From: an uncultured Chloroflexia bacterium
Lineage (GTDB): Bacteria; Chloroflexota; Limnocylindria; Limnocylindrales; CSP1-4
Direction of reading: 5' to 3'
NCBI GenBank assembly: GCA_963731635.1
Contig: CAVSWB010000002.1
Location: forward strand, 418,465 to 482,464
DNA: 64,000 nucleotides
Positions 33,525 to 58,434 of the stretch are shown here, piece by piece. The notes below the pieces were generated by a model. That model searched no databases, was not told the DNA's origin, and was given only the letters and a program-made list of their open reading frames with translations. Position numbers and translations under genes: made by a program. How positions within the stretch are numbered: the first letter of the stretch is position 1; each line of letters starts with the position of its first letter.

Positions 33525-33542
33525 CAGTGCGGCTGGCGGGCA

Positions 33543-35305: not shown

Positions 35306-35315
35306 CACCCTTGCC

Positions 35316-37864: not shown

Positions 37865-37942
37865 CGATCGCACGAGGATATCTATGATCTGAGGGCGGGC
37901 GGCCACTAGGTCGGCCCGCCTTCTCATGACCGTGCACCGACT

Positions 37943-38401: not shown

Positions 38402-38929
38402 GAGCTTGGGCGACCGGTCTGGGTCCCGAGTCGACACGACGAACTCGCGGTCATCCACGGATAACCGCAGCGGTGCTCGGAACAACGCCACTTCTGTAGC
38501 ACACCCAGCCCCGGCGCGGGATCGCGAGATCGATCGTTCCGACGCGGGTGTCCCAGCGGTGTTCCCGATATCTATTGCGGGTTGTTCGGCATCGCCGTCC
38601 GCACTCGCCTTCCGCAGCATCTCGAGCACGGCCATCCTGTCCTCGGCCATCGCGGTGTTCCTTTCGTCGTCGGTTGCAACTCCAACGACGCGAGAATGAC
38701 GCGATGGCCGCTGTTGTGGTCGGCCGGTTCAGCTGTTACACCACGTTGCTGGGTGATCTAGTCAACAGTCTATTGACATTGGCGGTACGCTGACTTTGGT
38801 TCGGTCGAGACCGCGAGGGCGGTGGCAGGAGACTCCGGCGAGGGAATTGGGGTCCGACGTCAGCGACTTGGTCCGTAGAAGCTGCTGCCACGGCGTCGGG
38901 CCTCAAAGCGTTCGTTGGAGGGAAGCGCA

Positions 38930-39841
38930 ATGAGTTTCTCAGTTGATGGAACCCTGGCCTACCCGAGACATGGAGGCCGATGCAGGTGGTCCGTCTTTGG
39001 TGCCCTGGTCGTCGCGTGCGCGATAGCCGTTCTCGCCGCGTCGCCAGCTTTCGCAGCCGATCCGAATGTCACAGTCCAATCGACGAGCGGCTCACCAGGA
39101 ATCGCGATTGATCCGAATGGTCCACGCACGCCAGCACAGCTGGGATACACCCAATCCTACGCTGACGCCAAGCACGCCCAGTTCAATGCCGCGGTCGCAG
39201 CCAAGACAACATCCGGGAACGTATCGCCGGCAGGCCAATACTATTCCGAGCAGCTGAATGGCTACGTCCAGTACCACCAGAAGACAGACCACTGGTGCCT
39301 AGCGGCCGATCTTCAGAGCCTCCTCGCGTGGAACTTTGGGACTGCCACGTACGTCGGGTCCAGCGTGCTGACGCATCAAACGACCATCGCGACAGCCATA
39401 AATACGGGCCCATATGGAGCCGACGACTATACCGCCCTTGCGTACGCAAATAGCGCGTTCAGCTATTGGGGCAAGAACTTCCGCTATGTTCCGACCTACG
39501 ACATGACGTCCGCCGCCTTTCAGAACCAGATTACAAACGAGATCGACATCTACTACGAACCCCTGTACGCCCGGGTCAACGTCAGCAGTCCCTACTACGT
39601 TTGGCATCAAACAGGCACTGCATACCACGCGACATTGAGCGTCGGATACTCAAGCAATGGTTTGACTACCATGATCGGCGATCCGTTCACCGCCAGCACG
39701 AGCGGCTGCCCGGAAGGCATCGGCTATCCAGGCTACAGCCCTAACCCTGACTATGGCTGTGTCTACTGGGGTTTCTCTACCTCTAGCTACTACAGGGCCG
39801 TGAGCGGCATGGTCAATGGCGAGGACCCGGAGTGGTTCTAG
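38930..39841 (+). CDS. Secreted protein, putative papain-like/C39-like cysteine peptidase
   Basis: Signal peptide VFGALVVACAIAVLAASPAFAADP. Candidate Cys-His dyad in DHWCLAADLQSLLAW and TAYHATLSVGY. Lower GC than surroundings. Confidence 0.45.
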   Translation: MSFSVDGTLAYPRHGGRCRWSVFGALVVACAIAVLAASPAFAADPNVTVQSTSGSPGIAIDPNGPRTPAQLGYTQSYADAKHAQFNAAVAAKTTSGNVSPAGQYYSEQLNGYVQYHQKTDHWCLAADLQSLLAWNFGTATYVGSSVLTHQTTIATAINTGPYGADDYTALAYANSAFSYWGKNFRYVPTYDMTSAAFQNQITNEIDIYYEPLYARVNVSSPYYVWHQTGTAYHATLSVGYSSNGLTTMIGDPFTASTSGCPEGIGYPGYSPNPDYGCVYWGFSTSSYYRAVSGMVNGEDPEWF

Positions 39842-39863
39842 TTCCGGGCCTGGAAGACCGCGC

Positions 39864-41096
39864 ATGAGGCGAGCCGCATGCAGTCTCCTGGCCGCATCGA
39901 TGATGATTCTTGTGTCGGCGGGTTGCCACTCGGGTCCGATTGTCTCGCCCCGTTCGAGCCCGCCGACTAACCAACACATCCAAGACAGCGCTTCGGCGTC
40001 ACTGCCCTTCGTCGCGCAGTCCCCGACATCGGTGGCGCCCACTGAGACTACTGCAGGCTCAACAACTCCCCCAGCCTTTGATGTGGTCGCGCTTCCGGAC
40101 TCGTATCGCGAACACCGAATGTCTTCGGATGGACCACGCGTCGTGTTGGACGAGGTCCCTTCCACGAACGACGCCAACGTCGGGAGTGTTGTCATCGTCG
40201 ATCTTGCGACGCACACCTGGGAACCGCTCGCGGATGCGGCGTCGGGCTACCAACCGTGGAACCCGGTCATCCGCGGCGACACGGCCGCTTGGGTCGAGTG
40301 GAAGTACGCCAGCCCGCCGGCCTCTGGATCGTGCTCATGGCGGATTGTCGTGATGAGCCTGAGCAGCGGGAAGAGCCACGTGATCGCGAGCGGGACCAAC
40401 ACGCGGTTTCAAGGCCTCGGTGCTCCGCCGCCGCCTCTCGCTCTCGATGGCACACAACTCGCCTACGCTGTCCAGGCGACCTCGGGTTCAAGGCCTTTCG
40501 GCTGGCAAATCCGCGTGTTGGATCTGGCTAGCGGGCGTGTCCAGCGGACGATCGACACTGGCGAGGAGATCTACGGTTTCGGCCTCTCCAACGGTGCCGT
40601 GGCGTACTCCGAGGGACTTGTCGATGAGGGCCGCGGCTTCGTCTACAAGACGAGGCTTATGCTCTCGACGCTCGAGAGGCCAGCTCCACGCCAGCTCGCG
40701 TCTGATGCGTTCGAACTCTCCTTCCGCGATGGCAGGCTGGCCTGGGCGGCCGACCCAACCAGTAGCCAGGAGCGGGGAGGGCGCCCGGCTGCACCGCGCG
40801 TCTGGACGGCCGCGGATCCCGATTGGCGCCCAGTTGCCGTCGCGGACCAGCCATCGGACTCTGTCCAGCAGGCGTGGCCCGCAGCTTCGCAACTGGGAGT
40901 GAGCTTCACCGCGATGGATCCAACAAATCCGGATCCGAACGGGCTTATGCTCTGGTTCTGGGATCCTAAGACGGGTCGGGCAGATGCAGTTCCGGGCTCT
41001 GAAGGAACGATTCTTTCGAGTCAGGGTTCGGGCTGGCTTACCTTCGCCGGCGGCCTAGGAGACGCGGTCACCGTCTCAGGTTTGGCCAAGCCATAA
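39864..41096 (+). CDS. Lipoprotein with beta-propeller-like repeats (TolB-like, unknown function)
   Basis: Lipobox LLAASMMILVSAGC followed by a Ser/Thr/Pro linker. Repeated segments of the form ...G..LA/WA...D suggest a propeller. Confidence 0.5.
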   Translation: MRRAACSLLAASMMILVSAGCHSGPIVSPRSSPPTNQHIQDSASASLPFVAQSPTSVAPTETTAGSTTPPAFDVVALPDSYREHRMSSDGPRVVLDEVPSTNDANVGSVVIVDLATHTWEPLADAASGYQPWNPVIRGDTAAWVEWKYASPPASGSCSWRIVVMSLSSGKSHVIASGTNTRFQGLGAPPPPLALDGTQLAYAVQATSGSRPFGWQIRVLDLASGRVQRTIDTGEEIYGFGLSNGAVAYSEGLVDEGRGFVYKTRLMLSTLERPAPRQLASDAFELSFRDGRLAWAADPTSSQERGGRPAAPRVWTAADPDWRPVAVADQPSDSVQQAWPAASQLGVSFTAMDPTNPDPNGLMLWFWDPKTGRADAVPGSEGTILSSQGSGWLTFAGGLGDAVTVSGLAKP

Positions 41097-41356
41097 GCTT
41101 GGTCGGACACTGGCGTGCTGGCGGCCCCTAAGCCTGGCCGTGGACCAAGGTCGCGGCGATCGAGGCCGGCACCACAATCCGACGGCGGGAACGGCCGGCT
41201 CTCGTAGAGCCTCCAAGATGATGACCTGGCGAGCCGGACTTGGCAGCTTCGCTGGCATCTTCGCCGGCGAACAGAGGCGGACGGCGAGGCGCCAGGTCGG
41301 ATCACCTCGCGCTCAAATCGAACGCTGACGGACCCTCGCGACCGCTCTAGAGCACC

Positions 41357-41410
41357 CTTGAAAACCGCAGACCGGAAGGTCCCAGGGTTCGAATCCCTGC
41401 CTCTCCGCCA
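41357..41410 (+). repeat. att-like junction B: divergent 3' half of a tRNA-Ser (cttgaaaaccgcagaccggaaggtcccagggttcgaatccctgcctctccgcca)
   Basis: Retains the anticodon-loop 3' side, a variable arm, a T-arm and the acceptor CCTCTCCGCCA, but differs from the intact tRNA in the variable and T arms. Flanked by 'ccggtagcaa' motif repeats. Confidence 0.6.
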
Positions 41411-41544
41411 AGAATTTGAGCGTGAATAGGCCATTTGTATCGCTGAAACCGGCACATTCTGTCCGAAGCCGGTAGCAATCCGTGGTAGCAACTGAACCGC
41501 CCTGGGTCTGATGGAGGCTCCATCTCTTGGAGGATGATGGAGCA

Positions 41545-41886
41545 ATGTCAGAGAACCAAGGCAGTCACGACCACCGTCACCGTTACCCGCCAGAGCTTCG
41601 AGAGCGCGCCGTTCGGATGGTCTTCGAGACGATCGAGCAGTCCGGCGAACGCACCGGTGCCGTCACCCGAGTAGCTCGCAACCTCGGCGTCGGAACCGAG
41701 TCGCTTCGCCAGTGGGTCCGCCAGGCCGAAGTCGACAAGGGCGCTCGAGCCGGCCTCACGACCGAAGAGCGCCGGCGCATCGTCGAGCTCGAGAAGGAGA
41801 ACCGGGAGCTGCGCCGCTCCAACGAGATCCTCAAGAGCGCCGCAGCTTTCTTCGGGGCGGAGCTCGACCGCCGCTCGCAGAAGTGA
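41545..41886 (+). CDS. IS3-family transposase OrfA (HTH)
   Basis: RYPPELRERAVRMV...GAVTRVARNLGVGTESLRQWVRQ HTH and leucine-zipper-like RRIVELEKENRELRRSNEILK, typical of IS3 OrfA. Confidence 0.8.
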   Translation: MSENQGSHDHRHRYPPELRERAVRMVFETIEQSGERTGAVTRVARNLGVGTESLRQWVRQAEVDKGARAGLTTEERRRIVELEKENRELRRSNEILKSAAAFFGAELDRRSQK

Positions 41887-42767
41887 CCCGCTACATCGAT
41901 CAGAACCGTGGCTCCTATGGGGTCGAGCCGATCTGCGCTGAACTGCAGATCGCCCCCAGCTCCTACTACGCCGCTCGCAGTCGGCCCCCATCGGCGCGGG
42001 CCGTTTCTGACTCGATGCTCAAAGACGTCATCATTCGCGTTCACCGGGCCAACTTCGGGGTATACGGGGCCCGCAAGGTCTGGAAGGCCCTCCACCGCCT
42101 GGGCATGGACGCTGGCCGCGACCAGGTCGCCCGCCTGATGAAGGCCGTGGCACTGCAGGGCGTCACGCGGGAAAAGACGATCCGGACGACCAAACCCGAC
42201 GATCAGGCTTCCCGACCGGCCGACCTCGTCGAGCGCAGCTTCACCGCATCGGGGCCCAATCGGCTCTGGCTCGCTGACCTCACGTATGTCTGGACCGACG
42301 CCGGCTTCGCCTACACCGCCTTCATCACCGATGCCTTCTCGCGACGGATCGTCGGCTGGCGGACGAGCGCGAATCTCCGGACCGATCTCGCGCTCGACGC
42401 CCTTGAGATGGCGCTCGCCTTCCGGGGAAAGGAGCTGCCCGGCCTGGTCCACCATTCCGATCGCGGAGTGCAATACCTCGCCATTCGCTACACCGAGCGC
42501 CTCGATGAGGCCAAGGCCGTCAACTCCGTCGGGAGCAAGGGCGACAGCTACGACAACGCCCTGGCCGAGTCGGTCAACGGCCTCTACAAGGCCGAGCTCA
42601 TCCGCCGGCGGAAACGCTGGCGAACGCTCGGGGAGCTCGAACTCGCGACCGCGGCGTGGGTTCACTGGTACAACATCGAGCGGCTCCACGGCACCTGCGG
42701 CGACATCCCTCCGGCCGAGTTCGAGGAGGCCTACTATCGCCAACTAGAAGAGGCGCATGCCGCCTGA
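41883..42767 (+). CDS. IS3-family transposase OrfB (DDE integrase core), expressed as OrfAB via -1 frameshift near the end of orfA
   Basis: DDE motif context: LWLADLTYVWTDAGFAYTAFITDAFSRRIVGW (D), HHSDRGVQY (D), DNALAESVNGLYKAE (E). The frame is -1 relative to orfA. The exact slip site is not resolved, so the 5' coordinate is approximate. Confidence 0.75.
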   Translation: MTRYIDQNRGSYGVEPICAELQIAPSSYYAARSRPPSARAVSDSMLKDVIIRVHRANFGVYGARKVWKALHRLGMDAGRDQVARLMKAVALQGVTREKTIRTTKPDDQASRPADLVERSFTASGPNRLWLADLTYVWTDAGFAYTAFITDAFSRRIVGWRTSANLRTDLALDALEMALAFRGKELPGLVHHSDRGVQYLAIRYTERLDEAKAVNSVGSKGDSYDNALAESVNGLYKAELIRRRKRWRTLGELELATAAWVHWYNIERLHGTCGDIPPAEFEEAYYRQLEEAHAA

Positions 42768-43110
42768 TTCCAATTCCGGGAGTCTCCACGATTCCCAGGG
42801 CGGTTCAAACGGCGCACACAGCCGAACAGCGCCGAACAGAGCGCAAGGTCCTCAGACCGGACTCCATTGCCAGCATGCACCTGTAGTCTCGACGTCCGCG
42901 ATCCTTGTACCGAACAACCTCAGCGCGGCGGTGAGAAGGGGCGACCGACAGCGAAGAACTCGGAGAGAGCGCGATCTCGTCGGCTGAGGTGGTCGACTTC
43001 GGCGCTAGCCGCCTCCAGTGCGCTCTATGATCACGTCAAGTGGCCCCACCGTGATCACCAGAGTTGGCCCCACCCCGACCGGTGTGATGGCCTTCTGACA
43101 GGTCTCTAGA

Positions 43111-43893
43111 TCAGGTCGCTGGCGATCCCTCCTTTCGCTTTGTCTGGCTGGTCCGGAGCCGATACGAGGCCGATCCGGTCTCGAGAATGTGGGCCCGGAA
43201 TGTGAGCCGGTCGACGACCGCGGCCGCCAGGCGCGGGTCGGTGAAGGTCTGGCCCCACTCGCTGAATGGGGCGTTGGACGCGACCGCGATCGAGGCTCGC
43301 TCGTCGCGTTCGGTCAGAACCTGGAAGAGCAACTCGGCGCCCCGACGATCCAGATGGAGGTAGCCGAGTTCGTCGAGACAGAGCAGGTCCAGGCGCCCAT
43401 AACGGCCGATGACTCTGGAGAGTTCGCGCTCGTCCTCGGCTTCCACGAGCTCGTTGACGAGGGCCGCCGCAGTCACGTAGCGAACCCGGCGACCCTGCTC
43501 GCAGGCGGCGATGCCAAGACCGATCAGCAGGTGCGTCTTGCCGGTCCCGGAATTGCCCAGCAGCACGACCGGCTCGCCCTCACCGATCCAGTTGCAGGTT
43601 GCGAGAGCCGCCAGAGTCCCCGGAGCGATCGTTGGCGTGGCGCCCAGATCGAACTCGGAGAGGCGCTTGATGCGAGGGAAGCGGGCTTCGGCGATCCGGC
43701 GCTCCCGTCGCCGAGACTCCCTGTCCTCGACTTCGGCCGCGAGCAGTTCGGCCAGATACGCCCGGTGGGTGACCCGATCGCGGACGGCCGCAGCGGCAAG
43801 CTCGTCGGCCTGCGCGCGGACGGTCGGCAGATGCAGGACGCGGGTGGCAACGTCGATCCCGACCGAGGCCGCTTCTTCGGTCAGACCTCTCAT
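43111..43893 (-). CDS. istB: IS21-family helper ATPase IstB
   Basis: Walker A LLGNSGTGKTHL and Walker B LLCLDELGY in an AAA+ DnaC-like fold. Confidence 0.85.
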   Translation of the reverse strand: MRGLTEEAASVGIDVATRVLHLPTVRAQADELAAAAVRDRVTHRAYLAELLAAEVEDRESRRRERRIAEARFPRIKRLSEFDLGATPTIAPGTLAALATCNWIGEGEPVVLLGNSGTGKTHLLIGLGIAACEQGRRVRYVTAAALVNELVEAEDERELSRVIGRYGRLDLLCLDELGYLHLDRRGAELLFQVLTERDERASIAVASNAPFSEWGQTFTDPRLAAAVVDRLTFRAHILETGSASYRLRTSQTKRKEGSPAT

Positions 43894-45467
43894 CGGGTGG
43901 TCCCCCCAAGGAGGCCGTCATAGACGGTCAGGGCCGGAGCCGACCGGTCATAACGTGCCAGATGGGTGGCCGAAGGAACGGTCGAGCCGGTCGGGCCGCG
44001 GTGCTCGGCGATCCGTCTGGCCTCGATGGCCACGAGGGCAGCATCTGCCGAGCCCATGGAGTTGACGGCTTCGAGAGCGGCGTGGACCGCCGGGAATGGC
44101 ATCCGTCGGTGGAGCAGGAGCACCTCGATAAGCGCCCGCGTGCCGCCCGCGTCGCCGAACTTGCGTCGCGCCCTGGCCCAAAACGCCTCATGTGCGGCCG
44201 TGAGCACGCCCCGCTCACGGGCCTGATGGGTCGCGAGGGCACCGGGCATCGCGCCTGGCTTGCGGGACAGGATCTCCAGATAGTGGTCGAGCACCAGGGT
44301 CTGGCTGCCCCGGATCGTGCTGCGCTCGTGGGAGGCGACGACTGTGCCGCCATCGACGACCTCGATGCGGGTGCCACCGATCCGAGCAGATAGCTGCCTG
44401 CCGGCGTATCTGGCGGGCACCGAATAGAAGCATTGGCGGACGCAGACCCGGGCCTTGGAGTCGACCCGGACGGTCGCGATCCGGGCCGCATCGAAGGGAG
44501 CATCAGGCAGCGGTTGCAATGCCGCCCGATCGGCCTCGCCCATCGTCCCGACGGTCAGACGGCGGGTGCCGATGTGGCGGGCGAGGTCGCGCCGGTCCGC
44601 CTCTTCGAGGCGGCGGTTGAGATCGGCGAGGCTCTTGACCTTGGGCACAGGCACGAAGAAGTGGCGGCGCTGGCGGCCGACCTCGCCCTCGATGCCGCCC
44701 TTCTCGTGGGCACCTTCCTCGCCCGGGATGCAGAAGAAGGAGTCGAAGCCATAGTGGGAGCGCAGGGCGATGAAACGCTCGGTCTCGGTTCGGTCTCGTC
44801 CACGCAGGACCCGGGCCACAAGGGAGCGGGCGTTGTCGTATCGGATCCGGGCCGGCACCCCGCCGATGCGGGCAAAGGCGGTGACGTGGCCCTCGAGGAA
44901 CGCCTCCTGGCCCTCCGATCCGAAGGCGACGTGGATAGCGACGCCCGAATGGGACAGGCGCAGCTCGAAGACCGAGACCGAGGTGCGCTCGCCGGCCATG
45001 ATCACGTCGGCGAGACCGAAGTCGACCTGGGCTTCCGAGCCAGCCAGATGATGAGCCACGATCGCAACGTCGCGGTGCTCGAGGTGCAGCTCGCGGCGGC
45101 ACTCGCGGACATAGCGGCGGACGGTGCTCTCGGCCACATCGGCGCCGTGCTCATCGACCAGACGCTCCCAGATCCGCCGGGCCGTGTGGCGCTGCTTTCG
45201 CGGTGCGTCGGCATCGGCGACGAGCCAGGCCCGGATGGTGGCCGCATGCGGTCCGACCGCCGGTGCGACCCGCGACTCGACGGGCTTGCGTGGCGGCGGG
45301 ACCGCGCAGGCGAGGGCCTGGCGGACCGCTCGCCGGTGCACCCCATGACGGCGCGCCAACTCGCGGATCGACACCCCTTCCTCCCGGTGGTCTCGGCGGA
45401 TACGCTCGAACTGCTCCACCCTCGACAACTCCTTCCTCCGTCGCTCGTGATGGCCTCGCAAGACCAA
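43890..45467 (-). CDS. istA: IS21-family transposase IstA
   Basis: N-terminal HTH (IRRDHREEGVSIRELARRHGVHRRAVRQAL) and a DDE core (QVDFGLA..., ...YDNARSLV...) typical of IstA. Length 525 aa. Confidence 0.85.
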   Translation of the reverse strand: MVLRGHHERRRKELSRVEQFERIRRDHREEGVSIRELARRHGVHRRAVRQALACAVPPPRKPVESRVAPAVGPHAATIRAWLVADADAPRKQRHTARRIWERLVDEHGADVAESTVRRYVRECRRELHLEHRDVAIVAHHLAGSEAQVDFGLADVIMAGERTSVSVFELRLSHSGVAIHVAFGSEGQEAFLEGHVTAFARIGGVPARIRYDNARSLVARVLRGRDRTETERFIALRSHYGFDSFFCIPGEEGAHEKGGIEGEVGRQRRHFFVPVPKVKSLADLNRRLEEADRRDLARHIGTRRLTVGTMGEADRAALQPLPDAPFDAARIATVRVDSKARVCVRQCFYSVPARYAGRQLSARIGGTRIEVVDGGTVVASHERSTIRGSQTLVLDHYLEILSRKPGAMPGALATHQARERGVLTAAHEAFWARARRKFGDAGGTRALIEVLLLHRRMPFPAVHAALEAVNSMGSADAALVAIEARRIAEHRGPTGSTVPSATHLARYDRSAPALTVYDGLLGGTTR

Positions 45468-45572
45468 TCGAGCCTACGGAATTGAGGTCGGGGGTGGGGC
45501 CAACTCTGATGATCGAACCGGCCGAAAGTGGGGCCGGTTTAGGTCTCGTATGCAACAGCAGACGTAGAGTGT

Positions 45573-46370
45573 ATGATCCAGCATATGAGCGACCTGCGGG
45601 ACTGGATCCTCGGACTGCCCGGACATGGCCAGTACACGTTCTCGACGCGGGATGCCTGCGACCAGCAACCTGCCATCAGCGCCGCGAGCACGAACGCTGC
45701 GCTCGCGCGGGCGGAGGCTGCGGGCCTGATCGTCACGCCCGTCCGCGGTTTCCACGTCGTAGTTCCCCTAGAGGATCGGGGAGTTGGCGCACCGTCCTGG
45801 CGCATCTTCCTCGACCCGATGATGACGCACCTCAGTCTCACGTACTACGTTGGCCTTTTGACCGCGGCCGCCCAACATGGCGCTTCTCCTCAGGCGGGCC
45901 AGATTACGCAGGTGGTTGTGCCACGGCAGAGACGGCCCATTGATGTAGGCCGAGGCCGGATCGAGTTCGTGGTCTGCCAAGACACGGCGAGCGCGCCGAT
46001 CGAGTTCGTAAACGCGCCGTCGGGCCGCTACCGCATGGCGACGCCGGAACTCACTGCCCTTGACCTCGTCCGCTATAGCTCCCGTGCCGGGGGGTGGGGG
46101 AACGTCATGAGCGTCCTGCGCGACCTCGCACCCGCGCTTCGCCCGAGTCACTTTCGGCCTGTACTTGCGATGGAGCCCGCGGCAGCAGACATCGCGCGGC
46201 TCGGCTATCTCCTCGAGCAGCTTGGCGCGGCCGACGCAGCGGCCCCGCTCCGCCGTTGGATCGAGGTGCGCCCGGAAAGCTGGGTGCCGCTCGTGCCGGG
46301 GTCCGGCCGAGCCGGAGTCCGCGATCCGCGTTGGCGGATCGTCGTCAACGAATCCATCGAGGCCGATTGA
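45573..46370 (+). CDS. AbiEi-family antitoxin/transcriptional regulator (type IV toxin-antitoxin/abortive infection)
   Basis: N-terminal wHTH-like region, and gene immediately upstream of, and overlapping (TGATG), a DUF1814 nucleotidyltransferase. 265 aa is a typical AbiEi size. Confidence 0.65.
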   Translation: MIQHMSDLRDWILGLPGHGQYTFSTRDACDQQPAISAASTNAALARAEAAGLIVTPVRGFHVVVPLEDRGVGAPSWRIFLDPMMTHLSLTYYVGLLTAAAQHGASPQAGQITQVVVPRQRRPIDVGRGRIEFVVCQDTASAPIEFVNAPSGRYRMATPELTALDLVRYSSRAGGWGNVMSVLRDLAPALRPSHFRPVLAMEPAAADIARLGYLLEQLGAADAAAPLRRWIEVRPESWVPLVPGSGRAGVRDPRWRIVVNESIEAD

Positions 46371-47152
46371 TGCTGCCGCGCGGGGAGATCCTGGCATGGC
46401 GGGCGGACCATGCACCGTGGGCTGACGAAGACGACGTCGAGCAGGACCTGCTCCTGACCCGCGCCCTATGCGACATTTTTGCTGACCCGTTTCTCCATGA
46501 GCGTCTGGCGTTCCGGGGCGGGACGGCCCTTCACAAGCTGCACCTTCCTCCGGCGGCGCGCTACTCGGAGGACCTCGACTTCGTGCAACGCAAGCCAGAA
46601 CCGATCGGGCCGACGCTTGATCGGCTGCGTTCTGTCCTGGGTTGGCTTGGGCGGGGCCGCTCGGAGATCGGCGAGCACCCGAAACTGAGCTTCCAGTTCG
46701 CTACCGAGGCGACTCGACAGACCCGGCGTCTCAAGATCGAAATCAACACCCACGAGCATTTCGGGAGCGTCCTCGAGTTGCCGTTCACGGTGACCTCGCG
46801 CCCGCTGACAGCAAAGGTCGCGATCCCGACCTACTCGCTCAACGAACTCCTCGCGACCAAGCTCCGGGCTCTGTACCAGCGGCGCAAGGGGCGCGACTTG
46901 TTCGATCTCTGGTATGCGAACGAGAGAGGGAAGATCGCGCCCCAAGAGATCGTTCGGCTATTCGGCGTCTACTTCGCAGGCTCCGGGCTCGCGGTCCCGA
47001 GCCGCGCGAGCTTCGAGCGCAATCTCGCGGCCAAGGGGTCTTCTGGCGTGTTCGCCGAGGTCGGCCCGCTGCTCCGACCGGGGATCGCTTGGGACCCTGC
47101 GACCGCTCTCGAGTGGCTCAGTGCCGAGTTACTGCAGTACCTCTACAGCTGA
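46370..47152 (+). CDS. AbiEii/AbiGii-family nucleotidyltransferase toxin (DUF1814)
   Basis: NTase motif FRGGTALHKLHLPPAARYSEDLDF (hG[GS]...D.D) and conserved K/R-rich C-terminal region. Translationally coupled to AbiEi. Confidence 0.75.
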   Translation: MLPRGEILAWRADHAPWADEDDVEQDLLLTRALCDIFADPFLHERLAFRGGTALHKLHLPPAARYSEDLDFVQRKPEPIGPTLDRLRSVLGWLGRGRSEIGEHPKLSFQFATEATRQTRRLKIEINTHEHFGSVLELPFTVTSRPLTAKVAIPTYSLNELLATKLRALYQRRKGRDLFDLWYANERGKIAPQEIVRLFGVYFAGSGLAVPSRASFERNLAAKGSSGVFAEVGPLLRPGIAWDPATALEWLSAELLQYLYS

Positions 47153-47173: not shown

Positions 47174-49564
47174 ATGAGTGAGCGCGATGCCGTGAACCCC
47201 GACGAGCTGCGCCTTGAGCTGGAGGGTCTCCGGGCCGAGAACCGGCGCCTGCGGTCGCTGCTCGGGTTGGATGTCCCCGAAAGGGCGACGTCCGCACCGC
47301 CGCCCGCGCCCGACTGGGAGCCAACGCTCTTCCGTGATCCGTTGGCGTCAACGGGTCGGGTGCCCGTGGACAACCGTTCCTCACCGGAGTCCAAGGTTGC
47401 GCTCTTCCGGTCGTTGTTCGCGGGGCGCGGTGACGTCTACGCCGCGAGGTGGGAGAACGAGCGCAGCGGGAAGTCGGGATGGAGCCCTGTGGTCGTCGGT
47501 GGTCCGGCCAACGCTCGGCGGCAAGATCGTGAGTACGTGCCGCTGGACGACGGGATCATCGCTGCGCACCTGACGGGTCGGGTGCACGTCGGCCTGTACC
47601 CGCTGTTGCGCGACGACAGATGCCGGCTTCTCGTGTGCGACTTCGACGGCCCGACCTGGCCCCTCGATGTAGGTGCGTACGTCGACGCGGCGAAGGTCGC
47701 TGGAGTCCCTGTGGCGCTGGAGCGCTCGCGATCGGGCGAGGGCGCCCACGTCTGGATGTTCTTCGGCGGTCCGGTCGTCGCATCGGCCGCGCGGCGGGTC
47801 GGTGCCCACTTGCTGCGCGAAGCGATGACTGTGCGAGCCGAGATCGATCTCGCAAGCTACGACCGGCTCTTCCCGGCCCAGGACTTCATGCCGAATGGAT
47901 CGTTCGGCAACCTGATCGCGCTGCCGCTCCAGGGGGCTTGTCGGCGCCGAGGCACTACCGTCTTCCTGGACCCGTCGACACTTCGGCCATTTGACGACCA
48001 GTGGGCCTTCCTTTCCTTGCTCGGTCGCAGCTCTCCAGAAGCGATCGAGTCAATGGCCGAGTCGGTGCGCCAGGTGGCCGCCGGCCCTCTGGAGTCGACC
48101 TATCGGCCACCGCGTGGGCGTGAAATGCCGAAGGCACCGACTACCGTTATGGCCGATGCCGGGGCGATGCTCTCGATCGATCGGATCGGCCTCCCGCCGG
48201 CTCTGCTCGCGGGGCTCAAGCATCTGGCCTCGCTCCACAACCCCGAGTACTACGAGAAGGAGCGGCTGCGCCTCTCAACCTGGAAGACGCCGCGCTTCCT
48301 TCGCTGCTACGGCGAGTCTTTCGACCGACTGCTGCTACCGCGCGGCCTGCGCGAAGCGGCCGAAGCGATCGTCGCCGAGGCAGGCAGCCGTCTCGTCGTG
48401 CGGGAACAACACCCGGACCTGGCCCGGATCGAGGTTCAGCTGCAGGCGACGCTGCCGGCGGGTCAGCAGGATGCACTCGATGCGCTTTGTCGCCACGATC
48501 TGGGCGTGCTCGTCGCGCCGCCCGGTGCCGGCAAGACCGTGCTGGCGTGCGCGGTCATCGCTCATCGCGCGGTGCCCACGCTCGTGATCGTCGATCGCCA
48601 ACCGCTCCTTGAGCAGTGGCGCGAGCGCCTCGTGACTCACCTTGGCATGAACCGAAAGCAGATCGGCGTCGTCGGGGCGGGCCGACGCCGACCACACGGC
48701 GTCGTCGACATCGCGATGGTGCAGTCGCTGGCACGGCGCGACGATGTCACAGGGTTGACGGCGGGGTACGGGTTCGTGGTCGTCGACGAGTGTCACCACG
48801 TGCCGGCCACCACGTTCGAGCGGGTGGTTCGTGAAATCGGAGCGCCCGCGTGGCTCGGGCTGACGGCCACACCCTACCGGCGCGATGGGCTCGAAGGGCT
48901 GATCACGATGTACTGCGGTCCCATCCGGCACCGCATGGGCGAACGCCAGACCGAGGACTCGGACTTCGTCCGCGCTCTCGTTGTCCATCCGACCGACCAC
49001 GTGGCCGCGCCGGCCGAGGCCGACACCCCGGCCGGAATGTCGATCCAATCGGTCTTTCGGGGCCTCGTCGAGGATGAGGACCGGACGCGGCTGATCTGCG
49101 CGGACGTCGCCACGGCTGTTCGTGCGGGCCGCAATTGCCTCCTCCTGTCGCAGTGGACCGAGCACATCGCATCGCTCGGAGCCTTGCTCGCGGAGCTTGG
49201 AATAGAGGCTGACGTCCTGCAGGGCGGCGTTGGCAAGAAGGCGCGGCGCGTCATCACCGACCGACTTGCCGGGGCTCGATCCGGGGACGGCGTCGTGCTG
49301 CTAGCCACCGGCAGCTTCCTTGGCGAGGGCTTCGACTGCCCGCCGCTTGACACGCTGTTTCTTGCGTTCCCCATCGCGTTCAGGGGACGGTTGGTCCAGT
49401 ACGCCGGTCGCGTCCTGCGACCGATCGACGGCAAGGCGCGGGTCGAGGTCCATGACTACGTGGACGCCCGCGTGCCCGTCCTTGCCCGCATGCATGCCAA
49501 GCGCCTCACGGCCTACGCGAGCCTCGGCTTCGATGTGGGCGAGAGACGGTTGGCACGGTGGTGA
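47174..49564 (+). CDS. Fusion protein: N-terminal archaeo-eukaryotic primase/polymerase (PrimPol) domain + C-terminal superfamily-2 DEAD/DEAH (ResIII/Helicase_C) helicase
   Basis: PrimPol-like N-domain: HLTGRVHVGLYPL, catalytic LLVCDFDGP (DxD) and SGEGAHVWMFF (sxH). Helicase: Walker A APPGAGKT, DExH VVVDECHH, motif III TATP, Helicase_C LLATGSFLGEGFDCP...QYAGRVLR. 796 aa. Confidence 0.6.
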   Translation: MSERDAVNPDELRLELEGLRAENRRLRSLLGLDVPERATSAPPPAPDWEPTLFRDPLASTGRVPVDNRSSPESKVALFRSLFAGRGDVYAARWENERSGKSGWSPVVVGGPANARRQDREYVPLDDGIIAAHLTGRVHVGLYPLLRDDRCRLLVCDFDGPTWPLDVGAYVDAAKVAGVPVALERSRSGEGAHVWMFFGGPVVASAARRVGAHLLREAMTVRAEIDLASYDRLFPAQDFMPNGSFGNLIALPLQGACRRRGTTVFLDPSTLRPFDDQWAFLSLLGRSSPEAIESMAESVRQVAAGPLESTYRPPRGREMPKAPTTVMADAGAMLSIDRIGLPPALLAGLKHLASLHNPEYYEKERLRLSTWKTPRFLRCYGESFDRLLLPRGLREAAEAIVAEAGSRLVVREQHPDLARIEVQLQATLPAGQQDALDALCRHDLGVLVAPPGAGKTVLACAVIAHRAVPTLVIVDRQPLLEQWRERLVTHLGMNRKQIGVVGAGRRRPHGVVDIAMVQSLARRDDVTGLTAGYGFVVVDECHHVPATTFERVVREIGAPAWLGLTATPYRRDGLEGLITMYCGPIRHRMGERQTEDSDFVRALVVHPTDHVAAPAEADTPAGMSIQSVFRGLVEDEDRTRLICADVATAVRAGRNCLLLSQWTEHIASLGALLAELGIEADVLQGGVGKKARRVITDRLAGARSGDGVVLLATGSFLGEGFDCPPLDTLFLAFPIAFRGRLVQYAGRVLRPIDGKARVEVHDYVDARVPVLARMHAKRLTAYASLGFDVGERRLARW

Positions 49565-49776: not shown

Positions 49777-49830
49777 CTTGAAAACCGTAGAGCGCAAGCT
49801 CCCTGGGTTCGAATCCCAGCCTCTCCGCCA
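49777..49830 (+). repeat. att-like junction C: second divergent tRNA-Ser 3' half (cttgaaaaccgtagagcgcaagctccctgggttcgaatcccagcctctccgcca)
   Basis: Same architecture as junction B, with its own variable and T arms. Embedded in a ~330-bp repeat shared with 58440-58860. Confidence 0.6.
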
Positions 49831-50002
49831 ACATTGTGAGCGTGAATTGGCCATTTTCGTGGCCTAAACGGGCCCTTTGTGTCCAAAGCCGGTAGCAATC
49901 GTCGGTAGCAACGGCGCACACAGCCGAACAACGCCGAACAGAACGCAGCGGTCCTCGAGACCGAGCCATTGCCAGCACCGGTGGTCTTTCTAAGCCTCGT
50001 CG

Positions 50003-53923: not shown

Positions 53924-56644
53924 TCAGACGAGACCGATCTGCTGGGCGCGCAGGAGCGCCTGGGTTCGGCTCGTCGCGCCGAGCTTGGCGAGAACGTGGC
54001 CGACGTGCCACTTCGCCGTGCCGAGCGAGACTGTCAGGCCAACGGCGATCTCCGCGTTGCTCGCGCCATGGGCCATCAGGCGCAAGACATCGAGCTCGCG
54101 GGCGGTGAGCGTCTCGAGCAGGCGCCCGTCGGCGCCCTGCCGCACCGATGTGCCGGGCACGGGTGGCTGCTGCGAGCCGGCCTCGGTCGGCTCGGTGGCG
54201 AAGGCGCCGATCATAAGGTCCACGAAGGCGGGTGCAACCGGGCGGACGAAGGGCATGAGGTTGGCAATGGGTAGTCCGTCATCGACGAACCGCCGGACGT
54301 AGCCGCCGGGAGCGGCGAGCTCGACCGCCCGTTCCAGTGAGCGCAAGGCGTCGTTTCGACGACCCATCGCGTTGGCAACCACCGCCTCCAGGACGCCGAT
54401 CGAGATAAGGTCAGCCACGGCTCCGGCGGCTTCCTGCGCCTCCTTCGTCCGAGCGAGCAGCTCGCGAGCCTCCTCGAACCTGCCCTGAGCCAGGCGTACC
54501 CGGGCGATCGTCGTGTCCATCGAGCGACGCAGAACCTCCATGAGAGGCGAGCCCGCTGGTGCCTCCGGTATCGCCTGGTCTGCCCAACGCGCGGCGCCGG
54601 CAACATCGCCCATCCTGAGGAGGACACGGGCCTCGGTCTCAGCGGCGACCCCCGGGAGCGCCATGCCGGTCGAGCGAAGGTCACGTTGACTGATCCGGAG
54701 CGCCTCGAGCGCGGCCGCTTCGTCGCCGCAGGCGAGGCGAACCAGCGCGAGGTACGAGATCGCCCAGCCGAGCACGGGACGCCCGACCCCCATCCGGCGT
54801 GCCGCCTCGAATCCCGCCTCGAGCTCGCGACGGGCCTCGACGAGGTCGTTGGCTTCGTAGCGGACGATGCCGAGCACCACGCGCGCGGGCCAGGCGATCG
54901 TTCGGGGTCGGCTCTGTCCATCGGCCTGTTGTGCGAGGACGGTGCGGCAGATGGTTTCGGACTCGCCGCGCAGGCCGACGAGTGTAAGAGCGTGGCATAG
55001 CGGGTTGACTGCGGGCAGGACGGCCATCGGGTTGCCGGCCTCAAGCGCTGCCCGGTAGCCCGCCCGCAGCGTGTCGACGGCGGGACCGTATTCCCCTCGC
55101 GCGAGCGATCCAAGGCCTGCAGCCAGCAGCCCAAACGAGCGGAACAGCGGATCTTCGCCCATGAGCCCGAGTCCCTCGATCGCCAGGCTCTCTGCGTTCG
55201 GCCCGGTTACCGTCGCCATCATTGCCCGGAGGATGAGCAGTCGCCCCTCGGCCGGCCCGCGCGCTCCGGACGAGACAACATGACTCTCCGCGAGGGCCAC
55301 CGCCGCGCCGACCTGGCCCGTCTCGAACAGCCCCCACGCCTGTAGCGAGACCAGCTCCGGGCTTTCTATGACCCGCTCCCCGGGCAAGGCATCGAGCCAG
55401 CCGAGGAGCGTCACGAGCTCGCCGGCCTCGAACGCCGGCCGGGCCGCGCGCTCGATGAGTTGGAGCGCAAGATCGATCGCGCCCGCGGCCAGGGCGTGCT
55501 CGATCGCCTCGGACGCGAGACCCGCCGCCTCGAACCAGCCCGCGGCACGCTCATGGAGCTCGCGTCGGGCGTCTTCGGCGATCTGGGCGCGGAGGTAGTC
55601 GGCGAAGAGGCGGTGGTAGCGATACCAGCGCCGCTCGGCATCGAGTGGGACGAGGAAGAGGTTCGCCCGCTCGGCCCGTTCGAGGAGAGCGGCGGCGTCG
55701 GGGCGACCAGTGAGCTCGCGACAGAGTCCGGCTGTGAACCGCTCGGCGACCGATATCTGGACCAGGAACGCGCGAAGCTCCTCATCGACGCCGCTGAGGA
55801 CCTCGTCGGCGAGGTAGTCGAAGACGAACCGCTGGTTGCCGCCGAAGGCCTCGATGAGTGCCGCCGGGTCAGGCCGGTCGCGCAGCGAGATCGCCGCGAG
55901 CTGGAGGCCTGCAATCCAGCCCTCGGTTCGCTCGACGAGGACTTCGACGAGGCGGGGCTCGAGCGAGATGCCCACGGCCGCGAGGTAAACAGACGCTTCA
56001 TCGCTGGTCCACCGCAGGTCTCCGGCCCGGAGCTCGACGAGCCGGCCGTGGGCCCGGAGCCTGGCTAGCGGCAGCGGTGGGTCCTCGCGCGTTAGCAGGA
56101 CGAGATGGACGAACGGCGGTTCACGTTCGATCAGGAACCGAACGAGGCGATGGACAGGCTCCGCGGTGATGAGCTGGTAGTCGTCGATGACCAGCACGAA
56201 CTGGTCGTCGCTCGCGGTCAACGCATCGACCAGCGAAGCGCTGACGAGCTCCGGGCTCGGGGTCGACCCGGGCCCGAAGAGGTCTGCCGCGTTGGCAGCC
56301 GCCGGTCTGACTGTTGCCAGGGCCGCGGCGAGGTACCGGGTGAAACGCGCGAGATCATTGTCGGCGGGATCGAGCGAGAGCCAGGCGTAGCCGATCCCCC
56401 GGGACCCGAGCCAGTCGACGGCGGCGACGGTCTTCCCATAACCAGGTGGAGCCGAGAGCAGGATCAGCCGCGTGCTGTCCTCGAGTCCGCGATCGAGCAA
56501 TGCGCTGAGCCGCTGCCGTTCTCGATGACCCGCGCCCGTGGCCGGTGCCCGCAGCTTCGTTGAGACGAGCGGCGCCACAAATGCTCGCTCCTGGGGTTGG
56601 GAGCGAGCGACGCGCGGGGCTGGCGCGCTTGATGGGTTCATCAA
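53924..56644 (-). CDS. LAL/MalT-type large ATP-binding LuxR-family transcriptional regulator
   Basis: N-terminal P-loop NTPase (LLSAPPGYGKT), long TPR-like helical middle, and C-terminal LuxR HTH (LTARELDVLRLMAHGASNAEIAVGLTVSLGTAKWHVGHVLAKLG). 906 aa. Confidence 0.75.
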   Translation of the reverse strand: MMNPSSAPAPRVARSQPQERAFVAPLVSTKLRAPATGAGHRERQRLSALLDRGLEDSTRLILLSAPPGYGKTVAAVDWLGSRGIGYAWLSLDPADNDLARFTRYLAAALATVRPAAANAADLFGPGSTPSPELVSASLVDALTASDDQFVLVIDDYQLITAEPVHRLVRFLIEREPPFVHLVLLTREDPPLPLARLRAHGRLVELRAGDLRWTSDEASVYLAAVGISLEPRLVEVLVERTEGWIAGLQLAAISLRDRPDPAALIEAFGGNQRFVFDYLADEVLSGVDEELRAFLVQISVAERFTAGLCRELTGRPDAAALLERAERANLFLVPLDAERRWYRYHRLFADYLRAQIAEDARRELHERAAGWFEAAGLASEAIEHALAAGAIDLALQLIERAARPAFEAGELVTLLGWLDALPGERVIESPELVSLQAWGLFETGQVGAAVALAESHVVSSGARGPAEGRLLILRAMMATVTGPNAESLAIEGLGLMGEDPLFRSFGLLAAGLGSLARGEYGPAVDTLRAGYRAALEAGNPMAVLPAVNPLCHALTLVGLRGESETICRTVLAQQADGQSRPRTIAWPARVVLGIVRYEANDLVEARRELEAGFEAARRMGVGRPVLGWAISYLALVRLACGDEAAALEALRISQRDLRSTGMALPGVAAETEARVLLRMGDVAGAARWADQAIPEAPAGSPLMEVLRRSMDTTIARVRLAQGRFEEARELLARTKEAQEAAGAVADLISIGVLEAVVANAMGRRNDALRSLERAVELAAPGGYVRRFVDDGLPIANLMPFVRPVAPAFVDLMIGAFATEPTEAGSQQPPVPGTSVRQGADGRLLETLTARELDVLRLMAHGASNAEIAVGLTVSLGTAKWHVGHVLAKLGATSRTQALLRAQQIGLV

Positions 56645-57058: not shown

Positions 57059-57826
57059 ATGAGCGAGAAGTCCGAAGGCGCCAAACTGGTTGAGGTGGTG
57101 CACCTGGCGTTCCTCCAGGTTCTGCCTTCCTATATGCCGGTTGGCGACTACGTTGTAAAGGGCGGAGCGAACCTGCGTCTGTGGTTTGACAGTCGCAGAC
57201 GGTCCCAGGACATCGATCTTGACTACCTGCGGGCAGAACGTTTCTACCTCGTAGAGGATCAGATCGACAAGACCCTGGCTGCCCGCGCGTTCCGCGAGAT
57301 CCTCCGCTCCGGAGGCGTGTCGATCTCTGACCCAACCAAGCCGAAGCAGACCTCGACGACCCGCCGATGGAAGTTCGTCGCGAGCGGTCCAGCGGGCCTG
57401 TTGAACACGAAGATCGAATTCTCGTCGAGGGTTGGAACGGTGGATCCCGAACATGCCTTCCAGCAGGCTCGTGCCGACGTAGGCGCCGGCCTCGGCCTCC
57501 GGGTCGTAAAGGCTGAGCACTACCTAGCACCGGCCGCGATCCGCCAGAAGATCGGCGCGCTTGCAGGCCGCTCCGAGACCGAACCCAGAGACGTGTTCGA
57601 CCTTGACCTTCTTTTGGGCGCATACCCGAACGCTCTGACGCCGGGGCACGTGGACCCAGCCTTGATCGACAAGGCTGTCGCCGCGGCTATGGGCATCGCC
57701 TACGACTCCTACCATGACCTCGTGGTTGACTTCCTCGAAGAGGAATTCGTGCCCATCTACGGCCGGCCGGACGTCTGGACCAGCATGGTGCTCGAGGTCG
57801 TCGAGCGCCTTGAGGCTTTGAAGTGA
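57059..57826 (+). CDS. AbiEii-like nucleotidyltransferase toxin (DUF1814 family)
   Basis: NTase motif VKGGANLRLWFDSRRRSQDIDLDY and conserved C-terminal basic region. Followed by an overlapping AbiEi-like gene. Confidence 0.65.
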   Translation: MSEKSEGAKLVEVVHLAFLQVLPSYMPVGDYVVKGGANLRLWFDSRRRSQDIDLDYLRAERFYLVEDQIDKTLAARAFREILRSGGVSISDPTKPKQTSTTRRWKFVASGPAGLLNTKIEFSSRVGTVDPEHAFQQARADVGAGLGLRVVKAEHYLAPAAIRQKIGALAGRSETEPRDVFDLDLLLGAYPNALTPGHVDPALIDKAVAAAMGIAYDSYHDLVVDFLEEEFVPIYGRPDVWTSMVLEVVERLEALK

Positions 57827-58434
57827 GCTTGCTCGAAGCCGAGACCATCCTCGACCGGATCGGGCCGGTCATCGAGACGCGAGAGGCGGCCGCGGCCTTG
57901 TTGCGCAGCGTTCCTTCGACCAGCCGTACTCTGGGCGCCCTCGCCGAGGCCGGCCATGCCCACAGGATTCGCCACGGCCTGTGGTCCATCGGACCGACGC
58001 CGCCGGATCCTTACCAGATCGTAGGCGATCTGACCCGGCCGCATCCTTCATACGTGTCCTTCCAGTCCGCGCTCAACTTCCATGGGATGATCGATCAGAT
58101 CCCGCGCGACACCACGGTAGCCTCGCTCGATCGCGCCCGCCGGATCACGACGACGATCGGCACCTACGCGGTCCACCACATCCCAGGCGAACTCTTCGGC
58201 GGATGGACCAAGGGGACGCGGGGACGCGTAGCGACGCCCGAGAAGGCCATCTTTGACCTCGCGTACATCAGCGCGGCGCGAGGCGCGCCGCCTCGTCGCG
58301 TACCCGAGATCGATCTGCCAGCGGGCTTCGATCGCGCCGCGATCGACGAGTGGATCGCCAAAATAGCCGACCCGCGCATCGCCACCATGACCAACAGGGG
58401 TGTGCGACAGATTCTGGCGAGGGCCGTTCGCTAG
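57823..58434 (+). CDS. AbiEi-like antitoxin (wHTH), located downstream of its cognate toxin
   Basis: N-terminal region LLRSVPSTSRTLGALAEAGHAHRIRHGLWSIG resembles the AbiEi N-terminal wHTH (..RV.RGVY..). C-terminal domain about 120 aa. 4-bp overlap with the toxin gene. Confidence 0.55.
   Translation: MSLLEAETILDRIGPVIETREAAAALLRSVPSTSRTLGALAEAGHAHRIRHGLWSIGPTPPDPYQIVGDLTRPHPSYVSFQSALNFHGMIDQIPRDTTVASLDRARRITTTIGTYAVHHIPGELFGGWTKGTRGRVATPEKAIFDLAYISAARGAPPRRVPEIDLPAGFDRAAIDEWIAKIADPRIATMTNRGVRQILARAVR

Follow-up and report, generated by a model that had tools for sequence, protein, structure and literature searches.

What a protein that joins a primase-polymerase to a helicase might be doing directly behind an abortive-infection gene pair, on an island segment that also carries insertion sequences, is the question raised by the last gene of a small cassette in the 64,000-nucleotide stretch of Chloroflexota DNA analysed here (the window). 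The earlier note, drawn from the letters of the DNA, had described the gene as a fusion of a primase-polymerase (AEP) with an SF2 helicase, and had offered two readings of it, either as the replication initiator of an integrase-less, satellite-like element or as a defence component co-functioning with AbiE. The open reading frame is real, and its parts are given below, the family being named after IEE, the "IS-excision enhancer" of E. coli.

47174-49564, plus strand: gene for the IEE-family protein, an AEP polymerase joined to an SF2 translocase (796 aa, intact, ATG start).
47198-47260, plus strand: N-terminal coiled-coil helix (aa 9-29) with the motif ELxxLRAENxRLxxLL (helix H9-29 of the AF2 model, pLDDT ~85).
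47393-48052, plus strand: AEP (primase-polymerase) domain (aa 74-293), matched by PF22548, by PADLOC PrimPol and by a CAPP profile search.
48053-48451, plus strand: conserved middle alpha/beta domain (aa 294-426) between the AEP domain and the helicase core, delimited from the alignment and the AF2 secondary structure.
48452-49465, plus strand: SF2 helicase/translocase core (aa 427-764), matched by ResIII, DEAD and Helicase_C and by PDB and Foldseek searches.

Both halves of the fusion stood up to profile searches for Prim-Pol, ResIII and Helicase_C domains, a check that the earlier note had called for. PF22548 (AEP-TOTE) aligns over model positions 2-229 of 230 with 252.8 bits (E=4e-75, cut-off 27) and ResIII over aa 427-569 (E=5e-21), while Helicase_C (aa 649-749) scores slightly below its cut-off (22.3 against 23.5 bits); motif VI of this region, QYAGR, nonetheless aligns with R735 of IEE. 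The NCBIfam matches (XPB, RadD and PrimPol_Msp) are all sub-threshold. [quoted passage not shown] Since the AF2 model of the whole protein is of moderate confidence (pLDDT 72.8, low in aa 224-261) and its Foldseek matches fall mostly in the helicase half (best matches XPB, from TFIIH and from archaea, and T4 UvsW, E~1e-18), the AEP fold was confirmed by a search of the AEP-domain profile against PDB sequences, which led to the Marinitoga CAPP structures 7NQD/7NQF (E=1.4e-20). For the helicase half, the PDB sequence matches are XPB/Rad25 and RadD. The middle domain, in which mean family identity to the residue of the 796-aa protein is 61%, is collinear with IEE residues ~290-420 and has P341, K349, N356-P357, R366 and P389-R390-G391 as invariant residues in the family alignment.

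The resemblance to IEE from E. coli O157:H7 (ECs1305/Z1568; Kusumoto 2011; Calvo 2023, PMC9943667) runs from end to end. In BLASTP, aa 15-788 of the protein align with aa 9-777 of IEE (ECs_1305) at 38% identity and 53% positives (E=9e-165), and IEE, which is 786 aa long, presents the coiled coil, the PF22548 AEP domain (329 bits, E=2e-98), the conserved middle domain and the SF2 core in the same order; ResIII and Helicase_C are laid out alike in the two. The ELxxLRAENxRLxxLL motif is common to the two proteins in the alignments. The residues of IEE that were mutated or assigned as catalytic, D142, D144, D216 and H178 for the polymerase and K451 and R735 for the ATPase, correspond to D156, D158, D230, H192, K454 and R746, and all six are at least 96% conserved in the alignment of 76 family members. 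Because the PF22548 AEP domain, the SF2 core, the end-to-end homology and the catalytic residues are all retained, the gene is, as judged by homology, a full-length member of the IEE or 'Z1568-like' AEP-SF2 family (Pfam PF22548). The two proteins come from different phyla (the Chloroflexota DNA has a GC content of 68%), and the genes differ in what precedes them, namely a DUF3987 protein and a small ORF for iee and an AbiE pair for the Chloroflexota gene. The idea that an SF2 partner is unusual for an AEP proved wrong, as this family has thousands of members, one of them biochemically characterised: a search at E<=1e-10 gave 4703 protein clusters, in which the ~800-aa AEP-SF2 architecture predominates, and one with just the AEP domain gave 6552 representatives at 50% identity.

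The AEP domain also brings two known systems into consideration. TOTE stands for TPR, OB, TBP, Effector conflict systems (Aravind, Iyer & Burroughs 2022, as far as they are summarised in PMC12458937); the Pfam family of the AEP domain takes its name from them, and some homologues are so named by NCBI. By the definition given in that summary, however, the 796-aa gene differs in having neither a TPR-OB nor a TBP partner. No TPR-OB (cold-shock-domain) partner is encoded in the 41.4-49.8 kb segment, no TPR/CSD family is a repeated neighbour among the three genes on either side (-3 to +3) at 83 related loci or among the genes preceding the homologue at 18 distant ones, and no TBP-domain partner was found in the scanned ORFs of the window or among the recurrent neighbour families of the related and distant loci. 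Membership in a TOTE system was set aside for want of a recurrent partner, although the AEP-TOTE effector domain is present. The nearest TPR protein is a MalT/LuxR-type regulator at 53924-56644, on a different island. The profile comparisons do show, at the level of homology, that the Pfam AEP-TOTE family is the IEE family, and no mention of TOTE was found in the IEE papers. As for CAPP, it is the closest solved AEP fold, and motifs A, B and C align; the chains of 7NQD/7NQF comprise the AEP domain only, and the comparison covers that domain. The best PADLOC model for the protein is the Cas-associated PrimPol PDLC01465 (E=2e-79). A CRISPR association was rejected despite this homology: there is no CRISPR array within the 64-kb window, and there are no cas genes near the ORF or among the neighbour families of the surveyed loci.

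IEE polymerises DNA in a Mn-dependent and error-prone manner and also joins ends by microhomology. It promotes the excision of IS3/IS1/IS30-family elements, for which an active transposase is required, and in vitro, as LigD PolDom and PrimPolC do, it uses microhomology to join 3' overhangs and displaces strands when filling gaps (PMC9943667). XPB/UvsW is the template family reported for its helicase half too (10.1101/2023.06.07.543989). By analogy with IEE, the 796-aa protein would share Mn-dependent extension and 3'-end microhomology synapsis with the bacterial NHEJ/MMEJ AEPs (LigD PolDom, mycobacterial PrimPolC). Such in vitro activities, and a helicase half whose nearest relatives are the repair helicases XPB and RadD, would suit a host DNA-repair enzyme, that is, a stand-alone MMEJ/gap-filling polymerase-translocase for double-strand breaks whose effects on insertion sequences are a by-product. 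We find this quite improbable, given that excision promoted by IEE depends on the transposase, that no ligase or Ku gene adjoins the IEE homologue at any surveyed locus, and that the gene does not behave as a conserved core gene. The protein itself differs from LigD PolDom and PrimPolC in lacking a ligase, phosphoesterase or Ku partner, in belonging to another AEP family and in being fused to a translocase. The earlier note had allowed for homologues being consistently chromosomal core genes; they prove to be accessory, lying in parts of chromosomes and large plasmids that are rich in IS elements, integrases and TA genes, with a patchy distribution over islands and megaplasmids and beside integrases, and they are frequently frameshifted or truncated in related genomes.

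The setting of the gene in the window is likewise that of an accessory gene, the cassette segment being the middle unit, devoid of an integrase, in an array of tandem islands at tRNA-Ser. Apart from the cassette itself, the segment contains:

41357-41410, plus strand: tRNA-Ser 3'-half remnant, the left boundary of the segment (junction alignment).
41493-42807, plus strand: intact IS3-family element with OrfA and OrfB (rve/HTH_21/rve_3), 29-nt IRs and a 3-bp AAC target duplication.
43053-45514, minus strand: IS21-family element (Mu-transpos_C_2/rve; IstB_IS21, E=8e-63) with 24-nt IRs that are 96% complementary.
49777-49832, plus strand: tRNA-Ser 3'-half remnant, the att junction closing the cassette segment (direct-repeat family D2; aligned with the other junctions).

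The att junction expected ~200 bp past the ORF is thus the right tRNA-Ser remnant, which starts 213 nt after the stop codon and belongs to the same D2 repeat family as the live tRNA-Ser at 32112-32197. The description of the segment as flanked by IS elements holds for its left side, where the IS3-family and IS21 elements lie 1.7-5.7 kb upstream of the IEE-like gene, but not for its right side, where there is none. The target duplication of the IS3-family element falls inside the att-flank repeat; for the IS21 element (istA 43890-45467, istB 43111-43893) no clear target-site duplication was found. Both elements are still in place, and the window shows no excision footprint. The E. coli gene has a comparable location, in SpLE1, an 86-kb integrative element with an integrase gene at its start and many IS fragments, so that both genes are accessory and lie on an integrated island amid IS elements.

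The pri-rep/prim-pol replication proteins of plasmids and phage satellites, such as ORF904 of pRN1, consist of an AEP and an SF3/D5 helicase. The 796-aa protein resembles them as an AEP joined to an NTP-driven DNA motor on mobile DNA, and it could on this basis be the pri-rep-like initiator of a satellite-type island that lacks an integrase and is mobilised by a helper. Att-like tRNA remnants, accompanied by paired CGGTAGCAA repeats, bound the non-IS part of the segment (~4.6 kb), its neighbour is an integrase-bearing element of helper type, and in SpLE1 iee comes after an integrase/AlpA/DUF3987 module. The motor, however, is an XPB/UvsW-like SF2 helicase and not of the SF3/D5 or DnaB type of pri-rep proteins, and the family is absent from phage genomes: tblastn found a full-length homologue in none of 50,697 of them (the matches are helicase-only). 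Of the 2.9 million contigs of IMG/VR, a single-sequence scan matched none and an alignment scan only some two dozen, whose copies are full-length and 35-41% identical. Many homologues stand alone in chromosomes or megaplasmids amid ordinary genes (at L001, for instance, a kdp operon is followed by the cassette and then by a peptidase, with no element around), and the plasmid copies belong to the accessory parts of replicons that measure 90 kb to 1.4 Mb and have their own replication genes. The adjacent island in the window is a separate element with its own RepSA initiator and integrase. The CGGTAGCAA repeats bracket the att cores in the manner of recombinase arm sites, rather than marking an origin beside the gene. 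Finally, the characterised member of the family promotes IS excision, and only the extension of existing primers is reported for it, de novo priming not being described in the IEE biochemistry paper. A phage or satellite replicase was rejected as a candidate, and the replication-initiator reading is, on this evidence, hardly tenable.

The remaining feature to account for is the gene pair directly upstream, whose identification as AbiEi/AbiEii is borne out by both Pfam and PADLOC.

45573-46370, plus strand: AbiEi antitoxin/transcriptional regulator (265 aa; PF09407 E=7e-33; PADLOC full length, E=3e-68).
46370-47152, plus strand: AbiEii nucleotidyltransferase toxin (260 aa; PF08843 E=4e-32; PADLOC positions 1-259 of 260, E=1e-85).

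AbiE is a type IV toxin-antitoxin and abortive infection system, made up by definition of two genes, AbiEi and AbiEii. Both are full-length here, in the usual overlapping arrangement (1 nt, TGATG), with the true start of AbiEii at aa 93 of a 352-aa ORF, and 21 nt separate the end of AbiEii from the ATG of the IEE-like gene. No terminator is predicted between the cassette genes, and from this and the spacing we infer co-transcription; a promoter scan of 45.4-50.0 kb found nothing, its consensus being probably unsuitable for Chloroflexota. The downstream AEP-helicase, as a third cistron, falls outside any described AbiE system and outside the PADLOC models, none of which covers the trio. The arrangement recurs: AbiEii is the -1 gene at 19 of 74 related loci, as against 2 of 114 at +1/+2 and 2 of 117 at -3/+3 (Fisher p=1e-9, which overstates the support, the loci being phylogenetically non-independent), and at -1 it is always co-oriented with the IEE-like gene, with gaps of about 0-30 bp. 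Three AbiE types with a mutual identity of at most ~25% occupy this slot, and since two loci (L015 and L004) have IEE genes that are 88.6% identical but different AbiEii types, the pairing appears to have been re-created after replacement. HigBA, BrnTA, Fic, HipA and PIN modules occur in the same upstream slot at other related loci.

These observations could indicate a single anti-phage or anti-plasmid defence system, in which the AEP-helicase would sense or process invader DNA in a TOTE-like manner and AbiEii would execute or back up abortive infection. The position-specific and renewed linkage (AbiEii occurs at only ~2% of the other positions) agrees with this, as do the reference to a conflict system in the Pfam and NCBI domain names, the Cas-associated PrimPol as best PADLOC model, and the presence of Fic, HipA, Abi_2, McrBC and Schlafen/AlbA_2 among the upstream genes of distant loci. 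The linkage is nevertheless seen in just one clade of Chloroflexota and one subclade of Acidimicrobiia: an HMM search with the three AbiEii types found none near 29 distant IEE loci, E. coli IEE included, which rules out AbiE linkage as a general trait of the family. The unrelated TA types in the slot run contrary to an AbiE-specific mechanism, and a literature search found no publication linking AbiE with an AEP-helicase. We consider such a defence trio unlikely. Of the co-functioning with AbiE proposed earlier, the position-specific linkage within the clade stands, while the exchange of TA types and the AbiE-free distant homologues point to a generic stabilising or regulatory role of the TA pair. 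A somewhat wider proposal, which we put forward tentatively and with more doubt than conviction, is that in Chloroflexota and some Acidimicrobiia a TA pair (mostly AbiE, of three swapped types) and an IEE-family protein form one functional unit in short operons. Either AbiEi autoregulation or AbiEii activity would then gate the polymerase in an anti-mobile-element or anti-phage module, or the whole would be a self-stabilising 'IS-purging' cassette. Such a unit has not been previously described; the only new point observed here is the lineage-specific position directly behind the AbiE pair.

The reading that we prefer, and hold to be rather probable, is that the gene encodes an IEE-family polymerase-translocase acting on IS transposition intermediates, within an AbiE-headed cassette. 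It is based on analogy with IEE, as supported by the full-length homology, the catalytic residues, the CAPP-like AEP, the XPB/UvsW fold and the IS-rich accessory setting. The XPB/UvsW-like SF2 module at the C-terminus would be a DNA-dependent ATPase that clamps the duplex without unwinding it, and the AEP and SF2 domains would jointly synapse 3' single-stranded ends via microhomologies of at least 4 bp. The likeliest cellular substrates would be the DNA intermediates produced by the DDE transposases of copy-out-paste-in insertion sequences, with the intact upstream IS3-family element as candidate target; the IS21 element, from a family on which IEE has no recorded effect, is a second, less certain candidate. 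Strand switching or end joining would then abort transposition and delete the IS, sometimes with flanking DNA. The iee-like gene would be the last cistron of the compact abiEi-abiEii-iee cassette, whose AbiE pair most likely retains the cassette by addiction and controls it through an autoregulated promoter, rather than acting as the biochemical partner of the polymerase; such a generic role fits the sharing of the slot by three AbiE types and five other TA modules. At 38% identity the function may differ from that of IEE, and a broader anti-invader role would fit equally well with the 'conflict system' name of the family and with the neighbours, which are mostly TA, Abi and restriction genes.

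In soil Chloroflexota such a gene carries no more than the label "DEAD/DEAH box helicase" or "TOTE conflict system AEP protein"; it is hereby tied to IEE, the only member of the family to have been studied by experiment, and this link supplies a concrete and testable activity, namely the removal of insertion sequences guided by microhomology. New in the comparison of loci is the pairing of the gene with AbiE and with further toxin-antitoxin modules, which is tied to one position and has been renewed repeatedly. Should this pairing serve a function, toxin-antitoxin systems would be linked to the control of transposable elements; should it serve none, what remains is an ordinary accessory cassette within an array of islands at tRNA-Ser.

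The gene under study is the last of three adjacent genes:

45573-46370, AbiEi, full length (PADLOC E = 3e-68)
46370-47152, AbiEii, full length (PADLOC E = 1e-85)
47174-49564, + strand, IEE-like ORF (ATG start, 796 aa)

The ORF call and the Pfam searches agree with the earlier note on the position and length of this ORF, on its primase-polymerase (AEP) and SF2 helicase domains and on the complete AbiE pair directly upstream. The AEP domain (Pfam PF22548 "AEP-TOTE", 252.8 bits, E = 4e-75) covers aa 74-293, and C-terminal to it lies an SF2 core composed of ResIII (aa 427-569, Pfam, E = 5e-21), DEAD and Helicase_C. The AEP profile matches crystal structures of the Marinitoga CRISPR-associated primase-polymerase across motifs A-C (E = 1.4e-20). 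In the AlphaFold model (pLDDT 72.8), the C-terminal half groups with XPB and T4 UvsW, and XPB/UvsW were likewise the HHpred templates for the helicase half of IEE, the IS-excision enhancer of E. coli O157 (10.1101/2023.06.07.543989). The SF2 partner had been regarded as unusual for an AEP, a view that does not hold: in a search of 5.8 billion proteins, the candidates scored included 4703 clusters at E<=1e-10, with the same architecture of about 800 aa dominant. Among the matches listed, 120 of 120 have AEP-TOTE and ResIII domains, most being about 800 aa long and some named by NCBI after the TOTE conflict system. The AEP domain alone retrieved 6552 50%-identity representatives, 861 of them at E<=1e-30.

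IEE itself (Z1568/ECs1305) has 786 aa, with a "Z1568-like" AEP at residues 1-290 and an SF2 helicase at 291-786 (PMC9943667). When the window protein was compared with ECs_1305 from the Sakai chromosome, aa 15-788 aligned with aa 9-777 of IEE (38% identity, 53% positives, E = 9e-165). IEE matches PF22548 (329 bits, E = 2e-98) and has the same ResIII and Helicase_C layout, so that AEP-TOTE in Pfam and IEE denote a single family. All residues that have been mutated or assigned in IEE have identical counterparts in the window protein: D142/D144, H178 and D216 (D156/D158, H192 and D230), and K451 and R735 of the ATPase half (K454 and R746). These positions and the DECH box are kept in 96% or more of the 76 family members compared, which come from Chloroflexota, Actinomycetota, Alphaproteobacteria and E. 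coli.

IEE is an error-prone, Mn2+-dependent DNA polymerase with strand displacement, which joins 3' overhangs via microhomologies of 4 bp or more, a reaction that requires both domains; the helicase module hydrolyses ATP in a DNA-dependent way and has no unwinding activity (PMC9943667). In vivo, it promotes the transposase-dependent excision of IS629 and other elements of the IS3, IS1 and IS30 families (PMC9943667). One current model holds that IEE changes from one strand to another at microhomologies while the element is being copied out in transposition (10.1101/2023.06.07.543989). Judging from its sequence, the window protein would act by this same mechanism. Two IS elements lie upstream of the cassette:

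41493-42807, intact IS3-family element (OrfA and OrfB, 29-nt inverted repeats, 3-bp AAC target duplication)
43053-45514, IS21-family element (intact istA and istB, 24-nt inverted repeats, 96%-complementary)

The AbiE-IEE cassette is found just downstream of the IS3-family element. This element is inserted into the att-flank repeat, where it splits the site between GGTAGCAAC and GGCGC and duplicates AAC; the uninterrupted counterpart is at 49903-49920. Inspection of the IS21 flanks revealed no recognisable target-site duplication, which may be due to an adjacent rearrangement.

The cassette and both IS elements form the integrase-less middle unit of an array at a tRNA-Ser gene:

32112-32197, live tRNA-Ser(tga)
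32198-41410, island A, a pSAM2-type (AICE-type) integrative element
about 32.2-33.5 kb, tyrosine integrase of island A
33543-33893, minus strand, HTH_17 Xis-like gene of island A
33890-35635, minus strand, RepSA initiator of island A (E = 3e-133)
41357-41410, tRNA-Ser 3'-half copy, 67% identical to the live tRNA
49777-49832, tRNA-Ser 3'-half copy, 74% identical
about 58597-58655, tRNA-Ser 3'-half copy, identical over 59 nt
57059-57826, second, divergent AbiEii-family gene (E = 1e-11)
41470, 49659/49672, 49890/49903, 50965, 58480 and 58710/58723, copies of CGGTAGCAA

Since three 3'-half copies follow the live gene, the array (32112-58655) consists of three stacked islands, which implies at least three successive integrations. 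The second copy, 213 nt past the stop codon of the IEE-like gene, bears out the att junction proposed there. The CGGTAGCAA motif occurs nine times in the window (0.19 expected), mostly in pairs 13 nt apart that flank the tRNA remnants, with none beside the live tRNA. These pairs resemble arm-type sites for a recombinase or Xis and would belong to a second kind of att, whose integrase was not found within the window. In island A, four ORFs of 152-452 aa had no match in the Pfam search, and an intergenic 98-nt direct repeat just beyond RepSA (35833-35930 and 36045-36142, 89% identical, 212 nt apart) could represent iterons or the origin of the island. The third island encodes a 906-aa MalT/LuxR-type STAND regulator (53924-56644; AAA_16, TPR_MalT and GerE) surrounded by small membrane proteins without family assignment. 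Its AbiEii-family gene overlaps a 203-aa ORF without family match, the pair (57059-58434) lying just ahead of the 58.6-kb att remnant. In L008, a MAG contig whose IEE is 93% identical, the same pair (98% and 92% identical) is directly downstream of IEE (L008:3711-5083); about 7 kb of the window (49.8-57.0 kb) are therefore missing there.

The array also undercuts the earlier reading of the protein as an island replication initiator, because island A has its own RepSA and integrase while the cassette belongs to the integrase-less unit. No full-length homologue was present in 50,697 phage genomes, and such homologues are rare in IMG/VR. Plasmid copies are standalone, in accessory regions of large replicons beside integrases, Tn7-like genes and IS elements, and some chromosomal copies are flanked by ordinary genes (in locus L001, the kdp operon on one side and a peptidase on the other). 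The replicase claim is thus unsupported.

The link to AbiE was surveyed in 83 non-redundant related loci from Chloroflexota and Actinomycetota (49-93% identity). AbiEii is immediately upstream of the IEE gene in 19 of 74 loci, against two of the 114 genes in positions +1/+2 and two of the 117 in positions -3/+3, or about 2% elsewhere (Fisher p = 1e-9, the loci being related and so not independent). The pairs are co-oriented with IEE, the gaps measuring about 0-30 bp, and belong to three types sharing at most about 25% identity, of which A and B are interleaved among close IEE relatives. Loci L015 and L004 have IEE genes that are 88.6% identical, both downstream of the same LeuRS gene, and differ in AbiE type, so the AbiE module was replaced while the arrangement was kept. 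The enrichment and this swap speak for abiEi-abiEii-iee as a true three-gene functional unit, which we nevertheless consider rather unlikely, as the same slot is filled by HigBA, BrnTA, Fic, HipA, PIN or MNT-like genes at other loci, and no AbiE was found near 29 distant loci, E. coli IEE included. Upstream regions of these distant loci carry Fic, HipA, Abi_2, McrBC, Schlafen/AlbA_2 or recombinases instead. The co-function with AbiE suggested earlier is unproven. The two closest homologues without an AbiE pair (L006 and L008, 91-93% identity) retain short AbiEi fragments directly upstream of IEE (L006:2727-2819; L008:1002-1082), and the TA pair was thus deleted in place. We read the IEE gene of this branch as usually closing a cassette that a TA pair heads. 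That pair would probably provide retention together with an autoregulated promoter, a role that we hold likelier than a partnership specific to AbiE. A Schlafen/AlbA_2 and HATPase_c_4 protein is a divergent upstream neighbour of IEE homologues at L005:8103-9992 and at two distant loci in alignment A8, recurring across unrelated lineages.

Splits, truncations or frameshifts affect many related IEE genes (L017, L027, L031, L044, L055, L062, L068, L074, L079, L080 and L083), and C-terminal fragments form an ORF of their own at +1 (cluster c3). Pseudogenisation thus seems to be frequent within the family, although assembly errors in the MAGs may account for some of the cases.

As summarised in PMC12458937, a TOTE system is made up of an effector and two partner proteins, TPR-OB and TBP. 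The window protein shares the domain named after these systems (PF22548), but TPR-OB and TBP partners are absent from the window and not recurrent in any neighbourhood examined. The locus is therefore rejected as a TOTE system under the definition summarised there. The window protein is a new member of the IEE family, which is itself already known, and the main points of interest are the clade-specific TA-IEE cassette and the identity shown between the "AEP-TOTE" and IEE families.
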